A stretch of DNA of 42,138 nt, from the IMG/VR virus record IMGVR_UViG_3300013193_000001; one strand, 5' to 3'. How positions within the stretch are numbered: the first letter of the stretch is position 1; the number at the start of each line of letters is the position of its first letter. Below, piece after piece: positions 32,735-39,821 of the stretch. The notes under the pieces were generated by a model that had not been told where the DNA came from, searched no databases, and saw nothing but the letters and a program-made list of their open reading frames with translations. The translations under genes were made by a program, and so were the position numbers. Source of the stretch: a virus.

Positions 32735-32940
32735 CAATTCCACGACATCCACGACAGGAAACAGCCTTAAACCACCGGAAACCACCGGATAAGCTGAAAA
32801 GCAGAAACCCCCTCCCACCAGCAAAAACACCGGTAAAAGGGGGTAAGCTAGAAGTGCCCCCAGCAGGATTCGAACCCGCGACACAAACCCCATTTAACCA
32901 GCATAAACACCATACTCAAGCCCCCTTCCACGACAATTCC
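32735..32940. other. attP: tRNA 3'-end-like core flanked by integrase arm-type repeats
   Basis: The - strand reads GCGGGTTCGAATCCTGCTGGGGGCAC (T-stem/loop plus 3' acceptor of a tRNA) at 32855-32882. TCCACGACA occurs at 32739, 32748 (tandem) and 32927. Tandem AACCACCGGA lies at about 32770-32789. Inverted repeat ACCCCCT/AGGGGGT. Adjacent to the 3' end of int. Confidence 0.65.
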
Positions 32941-34016
32941 ACTGCTTTCGAAAAACTTTCATCCATCCGGCCAGCCACCACATCCAAATCCTCCTCCCAT
33001 AAATCTGCATACGTATCTAACGTCATCGCCGCCGAAGCATGGCCGAGCTGCCGTTGCACGATTTTTGGATGCGCACCCGACGAAATCATCAACCCCGCCG
33101 CCACGTGCCTTAATCCGTGCGGGGTGACACGCGGAAATTCCGGGTCCTTCTCCATGCACCGCTTCAGCGCACCATAGAACCACGTATGGTTCGACGGCAC
33201 CCGCAACGGGGACCCATCCGCCCTGCACCACACCCAAGCATCCTGAGCTTTGCCATCCATTAGCGGTACCAGCATGTCCATCACGAACCGAGGGACAGCT
33301 ACCACCCGAGTCTCATGTGTCTTCGGAGTGCCTATCTTCACCTCGTACCCCACGGTTACAGCATTCCTACGCACAGCAATCCGCCGCCGTAAAACATCCA
33401 CATCCTGAACCTTCAGGCCGGCTAACTCACCCCACCTAAGACCCACGGTGCCTAGCAGCCACACGATAGGCGCATTATCCCCACACTCGTCGGCAAATGC
33501 GGAAAGCTGCTCCCAACTGAGATACACCTTCCTGGCCTTCGCCTTCCTCGGGAGGGTTGCTCCCTTCGCTACGTTGGTTTTAACAAGCCCGTCACGTACT
33601 GCCATGTCTAGGATTTGGGATAGCATCGCGTGATTCTTTCTCACGATGGATGCGGACCGGTTTGTGTTTGATAGCCAGTGCTGTACCTCGGAGGCCCGCA
33701 CTGCCTTGATAGGCGTGTTCCCCCAGCGTGGTTTTACGTGGATTCGCCAGGTCTGCTCTGTGGTCCGCAGGGTGGATGGTTTCAAATGGGTTTGCATTTC
33801 TAGCCACCGTGCCCCTAATTCCCCGACGGTTATTTTGCCGGCGTTGGGGTCTATCCAGTCTCCGGTGCGGATGGTGGTGGCGTTTTTGTCCGCCCATGCT
33901 TGTGCTTCGTTTTTGGTGCGGAATCCTTGTTTTGTGCGGTTTTTACCGTCGGGGCTGCGGTACTGCACGCGCCACGCCCGCCCTTTTGCTGTCTTGTACG
34001 GCTTGATGGATGCCAT
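32916..34016 (-). CDS. int: tyrosine integrase
   Basis: C-terminal HGLRHVAAGLMISSGAHPKIVQRQLGHASAAMTLDTYADLW (R..H..R...Y catalytic box). N-terminal arm-binding MASIKPYKTAKGRAWRVQY. The ATG at 34016 has a GGAAGGA RBS (the ORF extends to 34229 without an RBS). Confidence 0.85.
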   Translation of the reverse strand: MASIKPYKTAKGRAWRVQYRSPDGKNRTKQGFRTKNEAQAWADKNATTIRTGDWIDPNAGKITVGELGARWLEMQTHLKPSTLRTTEQTWRIHVKPRWGNTPIKAVRASEVQHWLSNTNRSASIVRKNHAMLSQILDMAVRDGLVKTNVAKGATLPRKAKARKVYLSWEQLSAFADECGDNAPIVWLLGTVGLRWGELAGLKVQDVDVLRRRIAVRRNAVTVGYEVKIGTPKTHETRVVAVPRFVMDMLVPLMDGKAQDAWVWCRADGSPLRVPSNHTWFYGALKRCMEKDPEFPRVTPHGLRHVAAGLMISSGAHPKIVQRQLGHASAAMTLDTYADLWEEDLDVVAGRMDESFSKAVELSWKGA

Positions 34017-34148
34017 AAGATATACGTGTCCTTCCCAATTGGTGGTTGGATAATCCCCGCCCTTGGTGCTGTACTTCCACATGACAAGCGCCAAGGGCGG
34101 TCTTGTTTTATACTGCTGGTGGCCCACATCCCCCCCGTGGGCCCATAG

Positions 34149-34197
34149 GGTGGCCCCGTGTCCGAGCACAGCTCCACGGGGCCACCCCCAGTTTTTA
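34149..34197. terminator. GC-rich hairpin downstream of immunity operon
   Basis: Perfect 12-bp inverted repeat GGTGGCCCCGTG (34149-34160) / CACGGGGCCACC (34175-34186). TTTTT follows on the + strand. On the - strand it follows the stop of the SHOCT gene. Confidence 0.5.
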
Positions 34198-34965
34198 CAG
34201 TCCGAGCGCTTTGGCTTTAGCCGCTGCAAATTCTTCGTCAGTCAGCACACCGGCAGCGTGCAAGTCGGCGAGCTTCTGCAAATCGTCTAAACTACCGCTG
34301 GACTCAGGTGCAGAGGACGGCGCAGAAACCTGCTCGAGTGCACGACGCGCTGCGGACACAACTGCCTTCGCCTCATCGGTCGCCACTTTCTCCACCTCAA
34401 TCTCATCATTCGAGGTAGAGATGCGGATAGACCCCAACGCCCACCCAGTTTTCTCCGAGATAGAGGAAACTTTATCCAGCGCAATAGTCTTCGATGCCCC
34501 TTGAAAACCGATCACATCGTTAGAGACGACCAAAATGCGCTTTTCGGTAACAGTAAGGACTGTGATCTTCCCATCGTAATGCCCTTGGGCAGCAACCACG
34601 ATTCGTTCAGTGGGTTCTAACGCATCCAGCACCTGGTCCTTTAGCAGGTGGCCTTTTGCTACCGACTTTATTCCGTGGGTACGCGCTGCCTCTGCCCATC
34701 CGCGGTCATCAATCATTTCGTCTATAGCCTTCAAAGTCTTATAGACAACTTTGTCGGCCTCTTGGCAGTTGCCAGTTACGGTTAGTTGTCCCCCAGTTAC
34801 CTGAAATGTGGCTTCCTGCTTTTGCCATAAAACTTTCCGACGGGCAGAGACGCTATCTGCTTGTGTATCGAGTTCGTACTTCGGGAACTTGGTTTGCACG
34901 AATTGTGCGATTGCCGAAAGTACATCCTGGTCTGGCGCGATGAGGCGACGGGATATCTGGGTCAT
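34195..34965 (-). CDS. bacterial PH (bPH_2-like) + C-terminal SHOCT domain protein, lysogeny-operon cargo
   Basis: Central ITVLTVTEKRILVVSNDVIGFQ...KTGWALGSIRISTSNDEIEV resembles a bPH fold. C-terminal DDLQKLADLHAAGVLTDEEFAAAKAKALGL matches the SHOCT signature. Its ATG overlaps the ImmA gene stop (TAATG). Confidence 0.6.
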   Translation of the reverse strand: MTQISRRLIAPDQDVLSAIAQFVQTKFPKYELDTQADSVSARRKVLWQKQEATFQVTGGQLTVTGNCQEADKVVYKTLKAIDEMIDDRGWAEAARTHGIKSVAKGHLLKDQVLDALEPTERIVVAAQGHYDGKITVLTVTEKRILVVSNDVIGFQGASKTIALDKVSSISEKTGWALGSIRISTSNDEIEVEKVATDEAKAVVSAARRALEQVSAPSSAPESSGSLDDLQKLADLHAAGVLTDEEFAAAKAKALGL

Positions 34966-35342
34966 TAGGCTGCTGTCCTTTCGTGTAGGGATTGCCAGGT
35001 TTTGAGGACTTTGACCGTGACACCTAGCTCGTGGGCCAGGGTGGCCGGGTGTGGTCCATAGATTGCTTCAGTAGCGGCGTAGTCGTGGAGGTTTATGAGC
35101 AGGCGGGCGGCGAACCGGTCGGCGCGTAGCTCATGGGCGCCGTGGTGGCCGGGCGGGTCACCATAATGCGCGTGACCCAACTCGTGAGCCAGTGAGCACA
35201 AGGTGGTGACATCATCCATGCCTACGCGCAGGCTGATGGTGTTCCGGTGGGGGAGCCATGCTGCTTTCGGCCCGCCACGATGCCACCTCACTCGATACCC
35301 GCGGCGCTGCGCCACATCAATGAGGGCATCAGTGTTAATCAA
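34965..35342 (-). CDS. ImmA/IrrE-family HEXXH metallopeptidase
   Basis: LAHELGHAH (HEXXH) and typical COG2856 context downstream of an HTH regulator. Confidence 0.75.
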   Translation of the reverse strand: MINTDALIDVAQRRGYRVRWHRGGPKAAWLPHRNTISLRVGMDDVTTLCSLAHELGHAHYGDPPGHHGAHELRADRFAARLLINLHDYAATEAIYGPHPATLAHELGVTVKVLKTWQSLHERTAA

Positions 35343-35904
35343 TCAAATCCTCACCTCGCTTTTCACGTTCGGCCTGCTCGTCGGGGCTACTATCCGCCGC
35401 GTGCGGTACGGAATCGTCCCATTCTTGGACCAGGCCATCATCGTCATCATGCAGTGAAGCAGACGGCTCGGACACGGGGGCACCCGCACGACGAGCGGCA
35501 AGGTCATCGCGCTCGAGCAGGGAACGGGCAGCGCCACCGAGCTCTATCTTCTCGACGTTGCTTAAAGTGTCCTCGGCTAGGCGGTAGACCAGTTCTTCGA
35601 TGCTGGCGGTAGCCAGTAACTTCGCATCACCGTCTAGGTAGTTAAAGACTTCATCGCGGGTTAGCTTCTCAAGTTCTACTAGTGCGTCAACTGGGTTGAT
35701 GCTTAGCCCACGAGAGATGGCGATTACGTCTTCCGCTGCCAGGCCGTTCTTTAAGCGGAGGTTCACGGTATTGCGTGACGTTTCGAGGATGTCTGCCATG
35801 TCTTGGGCGGTGACGCGGCGTCCGGCGAGGCTGGCGAAGATATCTTTTACGTCTGCTGGGGTTGTCATAAAAGTGAGCATAGTGCACAAAAAAGTTGTCA
35901 GCAA
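35335..35904 (-). CDS. HTH-domain regulator (putative prophage repressor, ImmR-like partner of ImmA)
   Basis: VTAQDMADILETSRNTVNLRLKNGL is an HTH-like segment with an acidic C-terminal tail. The start is uncertain (TTG 35904, ATG 35880 or ATG 35868); none has a clear RBS, so the transcript may be leaderless. Divergent from the cro-like gene. Confidence 0.55.
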   Translation of the reverse strand: MLTTFLCTMLTFMTTPADVKDIFASLAGRRVTAQDMADILETSRNTVNLRLKNGLAAEDVIAISRGLSINPVDALVELEKLTRDEVFNYLDGDAKLLATASIEELVYRLAEDTLSNVEKIELGGAARSLLERDDLAARRAGAPVSEPSASLHDDDDGLVQEWDDSVPHAADSSPDEQAEREKRGEDLID

Positions 35905-36023
35905 GTGGGGGTAGACCTGCCAAAAGACAAAATGGGTGCACCTTTTTGAATTACAAGCTTGTCAAACGGTTAGCGGGTGACATATTATTTTGTCATACCC
36001 GCTACAAAACAAGGAAAAAGACA
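35905..36023. promoter_or_regulatory. divergent promoter/operator region of the genetic switch
   Basis: AT-rich. Repeated TTGTCA half-sites (about 35895, 35958, 35988). Imperfect palindrome GCGGGTGACAtattattttGTCAtaCCCGC. GTGCAC repeats. Confidence 0.5.
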
Positions 36024-36245
36024 ATGTTTCTTATCAGTTTGGACGAGCTGGACCGGGTTAAGCGTATCAACCGCCTCTACACCGCAGTAGACCTCGCAAA
36101 CCGCACAGGACTATCGCGAAATACCTGGAACGCAGCAATCAAAAACCGCCGACCCACCCCACAAGTATTAAACGCCCTCGCCGAACTGGGAGCCGCACCC
36201 GAACGCGTCCTAGTTAAGCAAGAGCCCGCACAGTTAGCCGCATAA
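36024..36245 (+). CDS. Cro-like HTH regulator
   Basis: 74 aa with LYTAVDLANRTGLSRNTWNAAIKNRR (HTH) and an AAGGAAAAAG RBS. Divergent from the repressor operon. Confidence 0.65.
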   Translation: MFLISLDELDRVKRINRLYTAVDLANRTGLSRNTWNAAIKNRRPTPQVLNALAELGAAPERVLVKQEPAQLAA

Positions 36246-36790
36246 ACACAGCCCGACCAGCAGGCAGGGGAGTGCAAGCCTCCCCACGGGCACCAGGCCG
36301 CCAGCCCCTCCCTAGGGGATAGACGAGGGACTGGACGGCCACGCAGTACAGAGAACTCAATAGTGAAGAGCGCCGGAAGATACCGGCCGGACGAGCGTGG
36401 TTCATAGATCAGGCCCCATTGGGCCGCCCGACAGGGTGCCAGGACTCCGGCAAGTACATAAGTACAGGAACCCTCACCCTGGAGTGGTGAGGAGGGAGCG
36501 AACGGCGCGGACAGAAATACCAGGCCTGACAGGACAAAACACATTTTCTTACACCTACAACCGAGGCAAAGGAATGTGCTTGCAAAAGACTCCGGGGTTC
36601 GATTCCCCGGCAGGCCACTGGGGTGGGTGCGACGTGTTACTGGCGTCGTAAGTGAAGGAGCGGGCGGCCCCGCCACTGACCCGCACCTGCACCCACCCCT
36701 TTATTTAGACATAAGTGCGGCCCCCTACGAATTGGGAGTGTGGGGGCCGATCGTTAAGGCCCAATGAGGTGGGCCTTTTTTAGTACGACA
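36246..36790 (+). ncRNA. ORF-free, highly structured region (candidate ncRNA / antitermination or regulatory leader) ending in an intrinsic terminator
   Basis: At least 8 GC-rich hairpins: GGGGAG/CTCCCC; GGCCC/GGGCC; CCTCAC/GTGAGG; CGGGGTTCGATTCCCCG (tRNA T-arm-like); 9-bp long-range pair GGGTGGGTG (36624-36632)/CACCCACCC (36693-36701); GCGGCCCCC/GGGGGCCG (36717-36749). Terminator GGCCCA...TGGGCC plus T6 at 36757-36783. Confidence 0.4.
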
Positions 36791-36810
36791 CTCAAAAAGG
36801 GAGGTCTGTA

Positions 36811-36984
36811 ATGGACACTACCACATGGCTGCTGGCCGATGAGGCAGCCGAGTACATGAGGATGGACCGTGACACTGTGTACACGCTTTTGCAGCGCAGC
36901 GAGTTGCGCGGCGTGAAAGTTGGCCGCAGGTGGCGTGTGCGCCGCGAATGGTGCGACGCCTTTTTGATGGGGGAGTCAGTATGA
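36811..36984 (+). CDS. excisionase-family / HTH_17 DNA-binding protein
   Basis: 57 aa: WLLADEAAEYMRMDRDTVYTLLQRSELRGVKVGRRWRVRREWCDAFL. GGGAGG RBS. Confidence 0.65.
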   Translation: MDTTTWLLADEAAEYMRMDRDTVYTLLQRSELRGVKVGRRWRVRREWCDAFLMGESV

Positions 36985-37065
36985 GCTGGCTAAAAAGATT
37001 GTTCCGCCGCGGCCGTCATCGTAAGCCCCGCACCCTGAAATTCACCATGCAATGGAGGTAACAAA

Positions 37066-38387: not shown

Positions 38388-39821
38388 ATGGCAGAAGTCT
38401 ACGTCCCCCTACTTGATGCCACCAGCATCGACTTCACTAATGACGATGAGCGCGCCGGGGTAGAAAAGACCATCACCCAAGCTGGGATTACTCACATCGA
38501 AGATGACCGCGGCGACATCAGGAAAATCTTCGGCCGGCTCAACAAGAAAACCGTCCCCCTTAATAACGGTGGTGATGGTCCGCAGCGTCTTACTTTCGAC
38601 AAGGTAAAGACGTTCGGCACGATGGAGGAGAAGAAAGCCGCCCCGTCGGCCGAAGTGCAGCACACTGGCCGCGCACACGCCGTGCTGTCTGCTTCCAGTT
38701 CTCACAGGTGGCTTAACTGCACGCCGGCGCCGCAGCTTGAAGCCCAATACCCGGACAGTGAGTCTGACGCCGCGGCGGAAGGTACTGCAGCCCATGAGCT
38801 CGCGGAGCACAAGCTACGCCTCCTCAACGGTGACGAGTCCACCCTCGTTGGCGACTCCGACTGGATTAACGAGGAGATGGATTCCTACACCGACGACTAT
38901 GTCGATAACGTGATGGCGGAGCTCGCGCGCGCCCAGGAAACCAGCCCGGCCGCGTTCCTCGCGATTGAACAGCGCCTCGACTTCTCCCACATCGTGCCGG
39001 ACGGTTTCGGCACCGGTGACGCTCTCATCGTCGGAGATGGCACCATGACCGTCATCGACCTGAAATACGGCAAAGGCGTAGAGGTTAGCGCGGTGGGTAA
39101 TCCGCAGATGCGCTTGTATGCGCTCGGCGCCCTTGCCCAGTTCGGCATGATTTACAACGTCGACCGGGTGCGCATGGTGATTTTCCAGCCACGCCTAAAC
39201 AACGTGAGCGTCGATGAGGTAAGCGTCGAAGAACTCACCACGTGGGCTAAGGAAGTGGTTGCCCCGCGCGCGCAACTCGCCATCAACGGTGAGGGAGAAC
39301 TTAACGCGGGGGAGTGGTGCCGATTCTGCCGGCACGCGCCACAATGCCCAGCACTCGCCGCCCAATACCTCGAGCCGCTGCCGAAGGAACCGGATGATGT
39401 GACGCCGGCGGCCCCCGCCCCAGACACACTCACCGATGACCAGGTAGCCAACATTGTCGCCTGGTCCGGGGAGATTAAAAAGTGGCTATCGAAGGTGGAG
39501 AAATTCGCCCTAGATGAAGCCAACAACGGGCATTACTACCCCGGGTTGAAGCTCGTGGAAGGCCGTAGCGTGCGCCGCTACACCGACGAGGACGCGGTTG
39601 CCGCCGCGGTCGAAAAGACCGGCCACGACCCGTACGAGAAGAAGCTCCTCGGCATTACTGCGATGACGAAAATGCTCGGCAAAAAGCAATTCCAGGACAC
39701 GCTCGGCGGCCTCGTACATAAACCGGCGGGCAAGCCCACGCTAGTGCCCGAGTCGGATAAGCGGCCGGCATTATCAGTTCCCACTGCAGACACAGTGTTC
39801 AAGAAACTGGAGGAAAGCTAA
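38388..39821 (+). CDS. DUF2800-type PD-(D/E)xK (Cas4/RecB-like) nuclease with N-terminal extension
   Basis: HAVLSASSSHRWLNC; GDALIVGDGTMTVIDLKYGKG; QMRLYALGA; C-terminal Cys cluster CRFCRHAPQC. The first 95 aa may be a fused or separate small domain. Confidence 0.65.
   Translation: MAEVYVPLLDATSIDFTNDDERAGVEKTITQAGITHIEDDRGDIRKIFGRLNKKTVPLNNGGDGPQRLTFDKVKTFGTMEEKKAAPSAEVQHTGRAHAVLSASSSHRWLNCTPAPQLEAQYPDSESDAAAEGTAAHELAEHKLRLLNGDESTLVGDSDWINEEMDSYTDDYVDNVMAELARAQETSPAAFLAIEQRLDFSHIVPDGFGTGDALIVGDGTMTVIDLKYGKGVEVSAVGNPQMRLYALGALAQFGMIYNVDRVRMVIFQPRLNNVSVDEVSVEELTTWAKEVVAPRAQLAINGEGELNAGEWCRFCRHAPQCPALAAQYLEPLPKEPDDVTPAAPAPDTLTDDQVANIVAWSGEIKKWLSKVEKFALDEANNGHYYPGLKLVEGRSVRRYTDEDAVAAAVEKTGHDPYEKKLLGITAMTKMLGKKQFQDTLGGLVHKPAGKPTLVPESDKRPALSVPTADTVFKKLEES

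Follow-up and report, generated by a model that had tools for sequence, protein, structure and literature searches.

A structured RNA cassette with tRNA-like flanks in the early operon of Corynebacterium phages

In the Corynebacterium prophage represented by IMG/VR record IMGVR_UViG_3300013193_000001, a stretch of 42,138 nucleotides (nt) analyzed here in full and called the window, the segment 36246-36790 occupies the slot between a Cro/C1-type helix-turn-helix (HTH) gene (36024-36245) and an HTH_17 excisionase-family gene (36811-36984). A first-pass annotation of the DNA had already placed it between a cro-like and a Xis-like gene, and Pfam matches now identify the HTH genes on both sides. 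Sequence comparison indicates that this cassette is one member of an RNA family that at least 24 Corynebacterium phage or prophage contigs carry at this position of the early operon, and there is little doubt that the family is real, conserved and structured. The explanation favored here, to which we give a probability of about one half, is that the cassette is a composite phage non-coding RNA in which two tRNA-like elements, TLS-1 and TLS-2, would release and stabilize a trans-acting core lying between them. It is a new structured-RNA class, absent from Rfam 15, of a known general kind, namely the tRNA-associated phage non-coding RNAs.

The gap and its RNA family

Where the first-pass annotation had seen no protein-like open reading frame (ORF), mechanical ORFs do exist (84 and 63 amino acids (aa) on the + strand; 199 and 69 aa on the - strand), but none of those in 36246-36790 has a Pfam match and none is conserved even in close relatives, the same frame being free of stops for 101 aa in the window versus 36 aa in the metagenome copy L136. 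The hairpin density that it had reported is equally evident: the minimum free energy (MFE) of the + strand is -231.4 kcal/mol against a mean of -202.2 (standard deviation 7.1) for dinucleotide shuffles (z = -4.1; 0/100 shuffles as stable), and the MFE fold holds more than 15 helices. The reverse strand has about the same folding score, as expected of stem-rich DNA. The coding strand emerges instead from the substitutions, since in the hand-segmented copies G-U cells outnumber A-C cells by 15 to 2 on the + strand, and therefore the RNA is read in the direction of the flanking genes. These asymmetric substitutions, the ORF-free gaps at the same place in related phages, the abundant compensatory changes described below and the lack of any conserved ORF uphold the structured non-coding RNA that was among the roles first proposed for the segment.

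The family came to light through distant blastn matches, in which short blocks were shared with the Corynebacterium phages IME1320_01, StAB and Stiles, each block lying within an unannotated gap of 455-590 nt at the same position of the early rightward operon. Pattern scans added a copy in a C. hiratae prophage (L099), further IMG/VR copies (L006, L008, L132, L171-L173, L176, L177, L181, L182, L185, L188, L189, L191 and L193) and metagenome copies (L134, L136, L141, L143, L148, L153, L155, L162 and L164); wherever a host is named it is Corynebacterium. A covariance model, R1, built from 12 copies, retrieved 22 copies at E values of 1e-60 to 1e-7 together with two more cut by contig ends, and the model search finds a single copy in the window. 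IME1320_01 and L008 are more divergent, with the models detecting only the part from P5 to P8 (E = 7e-4 and 6.5e-3); they have in common the P1 stem, the position and a TLS-1 that is identical. The loose pattern applied to genome contigs was noisy, the matches listed comprising about 119 chance ones and one true one (L099), and many metagenome pattern matches were discarded as false positives inside a VOC/glyoxalase-type protein gene.

Alignment of the raw sequences with MAFFT and RNAalifold did not recover the structure, and 14 copies were accordingly segmented by hand, each verified against its locus. Our own count on these gave 28 pairs, 98.9% canonical and 21 with double changes, and shifting the 3' partner lowered pairing to 30-46%. 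For the core, a counting tool applied to 12 of these copies found 27 pairs, 98.7% paired, with 14 changed on both sides; 0/500 shuffles did as well by any of the measures, and in slid controls pairing was 31-45%, with 0-3 double-change pairs. Alignments made by the model gave 95.2% pairing and 14 double-change pairs for 18 sequences, and 96.7% and 15 for 22 sequences. Folding and covariance analysis against homologous regions, which had been put forward as a check along with the first-pass annotation, thus yields structural covariation.

Two further matches stand apart from the family proper. On the reverse strand of L177 (5117-5244), about 600 nt downstream of the main core, there is a second, weak R1 match (17.1 bits, E = 8e-4), which could be a partial duplicate or chance. 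In an unrelated metagenomic phage, L005 (IMGVR_UViG_3300037657_000271), the 150-nt spacer between tRNA-Tyr and tRNA-Trp (1031-1181) contains an 85-nt string whose pattern, read by eye, is like the 5' half of the core (GGCCGGC.GCGA...GAACUCAA...CCGG.AGA.ACCGG...CACAGAU); this spacer is scored by neither covariance model, has a fold z of 0.07 and is an unconfirmed lead only.

Core, tRNA-like elements and 3' domain

All elements of the cassette lie on the + strand. The core (36296-36522, 227 nt), which the first-pass annotation had overlooked along with TLS-1, is the most conserved part of the cassette and is not itself tRNA-like. It is defined by covariation and conserved joining strands as a four-way junction of P2, P5/P6, P7 and P8. 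Ahead of the junction lies the P1 region (36296-36340), seen in the fold and in relatives, in which a P1 stem (36296-36304 with 36331-36340) encloses the P1a hairpin (36306-36329) with its conserved loop AGGGGAUA; the P1a stem varies as CCCUC/GAGGG, CCUGCCC/GGGCAGG and CCCAaCCC/GGGcUGGG, variants that were read by eye and fall outside the tool counts. The conserved single strand J1/2, GAGAACUCAAUAGUGAAG (36341-36368), consists of invariant columns and is present in all core subtypes. It leads into the 5' strand of P2, AGCGCCG (36369-36375), whose pairing with 36503-36509 closes the junction; this first helix of the covariation count occurs as AGCGCCG/CGGCGCU, AGCGCUG/CAGCGCU, AGCCCCG/UGGGGCU and GUCCU/AGGAC.

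Within the junction, the alignment shows a conserved single strand J2/5, GAAGAUACCG (36376-36385), followed by the P5-P6 arm (36386-36451), in which P5 (36386-36391 with 36446-36451) and P6 (36395-36397 with 36437-36439) are the second and third helices counted. The arm also carries a conserved loop, UGGUUCAUAGAU, two lineage-specific hairpins (36410-36436) and the joiner CAGGAC, while P5 is rewritten across the family as GCCGGA/UCCGGC, GCCGGU/ACCGGC, GUCGGA/UCCGAC, GCCCCG/CGGGGC, GGUGCAG/CUGCACC and GGCCAA/UUGGCC. P7, the fourth helix, is the hairpin GUAC-AUAA-GUAC (36454-36465), with GCA/UGC, ACC/GGU, CCCC/GGGG and GCC/GGC as variants. The segment 36466-36502 holds J7/8 (AGGAAC), the P8 hairpin (36472-36478 with 36486-36492; helix 5) and J8/2, AGGGAGCGAA; the 3' strand of P2 and a conserved tail, GACAGAAAUACCA, established by covariation and coordinates, complete the core (36503-36522). 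The conserved core measures about 150-230 nt across the family, and the near-invariant, purine-rich joining strands around its four-way junction point to a defined tertiary fold.

Upstream of the core, TLS-1 (36251-36295) is a 45-nt tRNA-like minihelix ending in ACCA. It comprises a 5-bp acceptor (GCCCG/CGGGC), an 11-nt D-loop-like linker, ACCAGCAGGCA, and a 6-bp T stem (GGGGAG/CUCCCC) with T-loop UGCAAGC, followed by a discriminator A and an encoded CCA. Its 11 pairs are 98.7% paired, with 7 changed on both sides. In the window its start lies 5 nt past the stop codon of the cro-like gene, and across the family this distance from the stop codon of whatever gene is upstream is 1-6 nt. The ACCA end is found in 19/19 copies, a set recovered by a pattern itself anchored on ACCA; the true tRNAs in these cassettes have no encoded CCA. 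The linker purine tracks the last T-loop base, mostly as G with C, as A with U in L141 and L168, and as G with U in L185.

TLS-1 also occurs on its own in other phage contigs, one of them very GC-rich, where it lies without a core directly before ORFs (L168 182-218; L170 6106-6142, the same as L175). The copy in L168 has a fully swapped T stem (CCCUGG/CCAGGG), and from the solitary copies TLS-1 looks like an independent, portable module. A different occupant is seen in StAB (L002, MK937613), where an unannotated tRNA-Sec-like pseudo-tRNA (2859-2940) with the anticodon loop UUUCAAA (UCA) stands in the place of TLS-1 and overlaps the end of the antirepressor gene; it scores 35.9 bits with the Rfam tRNA-Sec model, below the gathering score of 47, and is negative in ARAGORN.

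TLS-2 (36523-36617), delimited by coordinates and covariation, follows the core directly. Its 6-bp acceptor (GGCCUG/CAGGCC) leads into a GG-containing linker that resembles a D-loop. Where a tRNA has its anticodon arm there is instead a long arm (CACAUU/AAUGUG, with a loop containing CCUACAAC), and a T arm (CCGGGG-UUCGAUU-CCCCGG) and a discriminator A complete the element. All 12 of its pairs are 100% paired and 5 have both sides changed. The linker GG goes with a UUCGA T-loop and is absent with a UGCAA T-loop; this pattern and that of the TLS-1 purine suggest an elbow of the D-loop/T-loop type. The T-arm-like motif of the first-pass annotation is the 3' part of this element (CCGGGG-TTCGATT-CCCCGG-CAGGCC-A, 36592-36617). 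Its accompanying statement that no complete tRNA could be folded upstream held only in part: there is no canonical cloverleaf, with ARAGORN calling 0 genes in the window and no RF00005 match at E <= 10 in 35800-37000 (the same tools detected true tRNAs in L005, L143, L173 and L176), but the 5' acceptor strand GGCCTG is present at 36523-36528 and in relatives covaries with the 3' strand, so that the sequence does form a tRNA-like structure.

What occupies the slot after the core differs across the family. In L143, L173 and L176 it is a true tRNA-Leu; L189 has a pseudo-tRNA that folds as a cloverleaf but whose anticodon loop is broken; StAB-type copies have a cloverleaf-like element with ACCA at its end (read by eye); the window type has the long-armed mimic (ARAGORN labels one copy 'tRNA-Cys' and another TLS-2 'tRNA-???'); and IME1320_01, L008, L177, L182, L185 and L191 have a bare acceptor/T-arm minihelix. 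True tRNAs within the cassette as a whole are found in L143, L171, L173 and L176. The acceptor and the T arm are the only constant features of the slot, and the acceptor sequences vary freely (GGCCUG, GCCCAG, GCGCAG, GGCCAG, AGCAAU, GUUGCG, GCCGUG) while always pairing.

Beyond TLS-2 lies a 3' domain (36618-36699), in which a long-range stem of 10 bp, GGGGTGGGTG (36620-36629) with CACCCACCCC (36690-36699), encloses hairpins and a conserved CCUGCA stands before the 3' strand; relatives form the stem as GGGGUUG/CAACCCC, as GGUGGGUG/CACCCACC, or with a U-G wobble. It is succeeded in the fold by a GC-rich hairpin, GCGGCCCCC...GGGGGCCG (36717-36749), just 5' of an intrinsic terminator, AAGGCCCA-AUGAGG-UGGGCCUU followed by U6 (36756-36782; 8-bp stem, 36756-36777). 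Both the long-range pairing around inner hairpins and the terminator agree with what had been noticed at first, and the other elements listed then are likewise there, at the positions given or close to them. A strong GC hairpin closes the cassette in most relatives; L173, L177, L182 and L162 have the core with no terminator hairpin behind it, the order in L173 being TLS-1, core, tRNA-Leu, ribosome-binding site (RBS) and ORF.

The 3' side of the cassette is also where mobile genes are found. A NUMOD4/HNH_3 homing endonuclease gene directly follows TLS-2 in L177, L182 and L185, and in L188 a remnant of such a gene is fused to 3'-domain sequence (AAGUGAAGG...CCUGCACCC). The insertions after TLS-2 imply that homing endonuclease genes either target the cassette or are tolerated in it, as reported near GOLLD.

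Proposed processing, known parallels and rival explanations

In both tRNA-like elements the acceptor stem stacks on the T arm, a T-loop and a discriminator are present, and TLS-1 has an encoded CCA besides. Bacterial RNase P makes use of an interaction between RCCA and RNase P RNA and of the tRNA elbow (PMC11143913, PMC4919913). Set against the shape of an RNase P minihelix substrate (a coaxial helix about 11-12 bp long whose 3' end is RCCA), TLS-1 offers 5 + 6 bp and ACCA, and TLS-2 6 + 6 bp and a discriminator A. Since RNase P and the enzymes related to it recognize the acceptor/T helix, elbow and RCCA, the flanks are most simply read as processing signals; the variety of the post-core slot, from tRNA through pseudo-tRNA to bare minihelix, likewise suggests that they have been kept as tRNA-type processing signals. 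The odds that they act in this way are slightly better than even. The processing/stability leader suggested in the first-pass annotation fits these flanks and survives as a putative part of the favored explanation.

From these features we infer the following course of events. The cassette would be transcribed together with the cro-like gene from a PR-like promoter of the sigma-70 type upstream of that gene (35959-35988, +; TTGTCA-18-TATTAT, 10/12 matches), the only candidate found able to drive it, no promoter-like site having been found inside 36246-36810. Transcription would end, at least in part, at the terminator (36756-36782), limiting entry into the delayed-early genes. The two look-alikes bracketing the core, keeping only the features read by tRNA-maturation enzymes, would serve as 'tRNA punctuation': RNase P would cut each of them on its 5' side, and trimming behind the CCA would fall to the machinery that matures tRNA 3' ends, RNase Z included. 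The core would thereby be freed and stabilized, giving a separate trans-acting RNA in the early phase of lytic growth. Its target can be guessed at: a host factor linked to tRNA or translation, or else an RNA-only assembly like ROOL and GOLLD, although confidence in any one function is low.

Parallels for such maturation exist. Reportedly, RNase P cleaves operon mRNAs (Li and Altman, cited in PMC11143913) and matures the phage RNA C4 of P1/P7, an antisense RNA (Hartmann 1995, listed in PMC11143913); the CI RNA of P4 is another RNase P-matured phage RNA. Like the cassette as we see it, C4 and CI are small phage RNAs cut from an early or immunity operon transcript by RNase P via tRNA-like features. 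They differ in being about 70-77 nt long and antisense to nearby targets, whereas the cassette has no target of at least 11 nt above chance in the window (17 direct or complementary matches of at least 11-mers, about the chance number) and no sequence similarity to them. Another likeness is that of MALAT1/mascRNA, where a tRNA-shaped module in a longer transcript recruits RNase P or RNase Z and sets the ends of the neighboring RNA (PMC8457004). As in mascRNA and in mitochondrial tRNA punctuation, TLS-1 and TLS-2 keep the acceptor/T-arm helix, elbow and RCCA, the features that the enzymes measure (PMC4919913). The present case would differ in coming from a bacterial phage and in having two signals around one structured RNA.

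Among phage RNAs, the nearest in habit are GOLLD and ROOL. ROOL, at about 580 nt, is similar in size to the cassette, which totals about 0.5 kb. GOLLD and ROOL are both phage- or prophage-borne, often lie beside tRNA islands, sometimes embed tRNAs or pseudo-tRNAs, have HNH genes nearby, and are of unknown function with no known protein partner (PMC12286853, PMC6582537). The cassette similarly embeds true tRNAs or pseudo-tRNAs and has an HNH/NUMOD4 gene inserted in relatives; it differs in its much smaller core (150-230 nt), in its place in the immediate-early operon of temperate Corynebacterium phages, and in leaving the Rfam models unmatched. In the window the GOLLD and ROOL models found nothing, whether at the gathering score or at the looser E <= 10, and the loci of nine relatives were likewise without a match at E <= 5 and E <= 1. 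More generally, the Rfam scan proposed alongside the first-pass annotation matched no known family in the window, Rfam 15 returning nothing at gathering thresholds and only chance-level matches at E <= 10, with none of the put family among them, and literature searches, with a check of the 50-genome survey, found no description of the cassette family.

Several more specific identifications were tried and set aside. The strings CAGGGUGCCAGG and ACAGGAACCC recall E. coli M1 RNA, the RNase P RNA, but the order of motifs differs and there is no Rfam RNase P match; CAGGGUGCCAGG is a lineage-specific hairpin abutting a conserved joiner and is missing from StAB-type copies. Strings like group I intron R/S (GUUCAUAGAUCA, AAGAUA) are in the wrong order and without an Rfam match, and the hairpin ribozyme match (E = 1.9; 17.6 bits versus a gathering score of 65) is at chance level. 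A tmRNA, including a permuted two-piece form, was rejected because ARAGORN is negative, there is no G3-U70 (the third pair is C-G in both tRNA-like elements), and the acceptor stems close locally. The cassette does resemble the tRNA-like domain of tmRNA and the module of Y RNA (YrlA) in joining an acceptor/T-arm mimic to a non-tRNA domain; it differs from them in having no tag reading frame and no Rfam tmRNA or Y RNA match, and in acceptor stems that are local rather than formed by the RNA ends. Species 1 and 2 of T4 (rnaC, rnaD) are small structured RNAs of unknown function that are co-transcribed and co-processed with tRNAs in T-even lytic phages of Enterobacteria, and have no sequence relation to the cassette.

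A number of points weigh against release by tRNA-type processing. The predicted processing is deduced from shape alone, and the slot between cro and the terminator is exactly the position of the lambdoid cis-acting antitermination site. The alignments behind the pair counts were hand-made or model-fitted and are thus biased toward the structure; they hold mostly close relatives, with an effective sequence number of about 2, so that independent events are fewer than the cell counts suggest. Type-B copies of TLS-1 end in CUG, so an encoded CCA is common and not universal, and an intact TLS-1 is missing in Stiles, L134, L153 and L182, from which it follows that the upstream tRNA-like signal is not strictly required.

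A tentative alternative, for which the chances are modest, shifts the emphasis to the core as a new ornate phage RNA with an activity of its own (a ribozyme, a ROOL/GOLLD-like RNA-only multimer, or a binder of the translation/tRNA machinery), which would have domesticated tRNA genes to minimal 'cut-here' handles. The series from tRNA through pseudo-tRNA and long-armed mimic to minihelix would then be stages of tRNA domestication.

It is rather unlikely, in our estimate, that the cassette is instead a cis-acting antitermination or attenuation leader, whose RNA would modify polymerase so that it reads through 36756-36782 and later terminators and would time the Xis-like and replication genes. 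The model here is HK022 put or lambda nutR-tR1, which lie between cro and the first terminator of the rightward operon. It is this nutR/putR-like position that keeps the explanation alive: the cassette sits in the same genomic slot, in the order PR-like promoter, cro-like gene, structured RNA, terminator and, 29 nt on, early genes, with no promoter-like site between, and a strong GC hairpin ends it in most relatives. However, the four terminator-less members carry the core regardless, the core is bracketed by look-alikes of cleavage signals, and HNH endonuclease genes are tolerated within the cassette. Moreover, put is a pair of short stem-loops that lacks tRNA-like parts, and the core, at 150-230 nt plus flanks, far exceeds it in size. 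The put-like antitermination element of the first-pass annotation is thus neither established nor dismissed, but it is weakened by the relatives in which no terminator hairpin follows the core. Taken together, the terminator-less members, the modular layout, the defined fold and the lack of an antisense target favor a released trans-acting RNA over a dedicated cis antiterminator.

That the tRNA look-alikes are themselves the functional part, as decoys or substrates for host tRNA enzymes or tRNA-targeting defense nucleases with the core as accessory scaffold, is distinctly unlikely. The conserved elbow-like features (the TLS-1 purine/T-loop covariation and the TLS-2 GG/T-loop pattern), the solitary TLS-1 in other phage contigs and the ACCA kept in the 19 ACCA-anchored copies would suit it. 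Yet anticodon arms are absent or freely replaced, which leaves no anticodon-nuclease decoy of one fixed tRNA, acceptor sequences vary so widely that no single synthetase identity is kept, and it is the non-tRNA core that is most conserved.

A decayed tRNA gene cluster, that is, functionless pseudo-tRNAs and spacers, is very improbable and largely refuted by the covariation. It would account for the true tRNAs in the cassettes of L143, L171, L173 and L176, for the tRNA-Sec-like pseudo-tRNA of StAB and for the ARAGORN labels given to TLS-2, but a core with 14-15 compensatory pairs and near-invariant joiners indicates purifying selection on a non-tRNA fold, and the stems of the tRNA-like elements change by compensation, unlike those of pseudogenes. 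Just as improbable is a riboswitch-like sensor, in which the terminator would be controlled by a four-way junction with a metabolite, second messenger or tRNA as its ligand. Conserved junction strands around a closed multi-helix junction with a terminator following are what such a sensor would show; however, about 230 nt separate core and terminator, with an autonomous tRNA-like element and a variable 3' domain between, the fold has no alternative core-terminator pairing, no Rfam riboswitch matches, and the terminator is missing from some members. A DNA-level site (secondary att, origin or packaging) or small protein-coding ORFs, for all that the T-arm/acceptor motif resembles attP cores and mechanical ORFs of 63-199 aa can be drawn, are effectively refuted by the attP-type fragment beside the integrase (~32845-32880), the G-U excess that marks a single transcribed strand, and ORFs that are neither matched in Pfam nor conserved. 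With them falls the remnant secondary att-like element of the first-pass annotation, as the acceptor/T stems evolve by compensatory changes of the RNA type.

Neighboring genes and wider meaning

Upstream of the slot lies a divergent immunity module of repressor, ImmA/IrrE peptidase and tyrosine integrase. The integrase was identified by Pfam search at 32916-34229 (-), and the fragment just past its stop codon (~32845-32880, -) consists of a T arm and an acceptor 3' strand (GCGGG-TTCGAAT-CCTGC-TGGGGGCA), probably an attP core with the 3' end of a host tRNA gene. The repressor, with a weak HTH match, and the ImmA/IrrE M78 peptidase occupy 34965-35904 (-), a pairing that suggests a protease-triggered induction switch. 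On the rightward side, the cro-like HTH gene (36024-36245, +) has weak Pfam matches to HTH_26, HTH_31 and HTH_3, and ends in a stop codon (36243-36245) 5 nt ahead of the cassette. On the other side of the cassette the HTH_17 gene (36811-36984, +; Pfam) comes first, preceded by an RBS at 36796-36804; early genes thus resume 29 nt after the terminator. Farther along there is a DUF2800/PD-(D/E)XK nuclease (38388-39821).

A conserved Arg-rich micro-ORF, MSWLKRLFRRGRHRKPRTLKFTMQWR*, is present at 36980-37061 (+) in the window and also in L132, L136, L148, L099, L001, L162 and L008. It occurs in many members of the family, though not in all, at a distance of 360-620 nt (in some cases 1.2-1.5 kb) 3' of the core. 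It has no Pfam match, and its Arg-rich stretch is reminiscent of RNA-binding peptides.

For annotation, the cassette family explains a recurrent 'empty' gap of 450-600 nt in these phage genomes. In a wider frame, large structured phage RNAs found by tRNAs, such as GOLLD and ROOL, are a standing puzzle, to which the family adds a third case, independent of those two, smaller, and alike in its genomic habits. In its post-core slot the reduction of tRNA genes to acceptor/T-arm minihelices can be followed as a clean natural series, and its presence in the culturable Corynebacterium phages StAB, Stiles and IME1320_01 makes it directly testable. If the flanks do prove to be processing signals, these phages would provide a bacterial 'tRNA punctuation' that releases a non-coding RNA.

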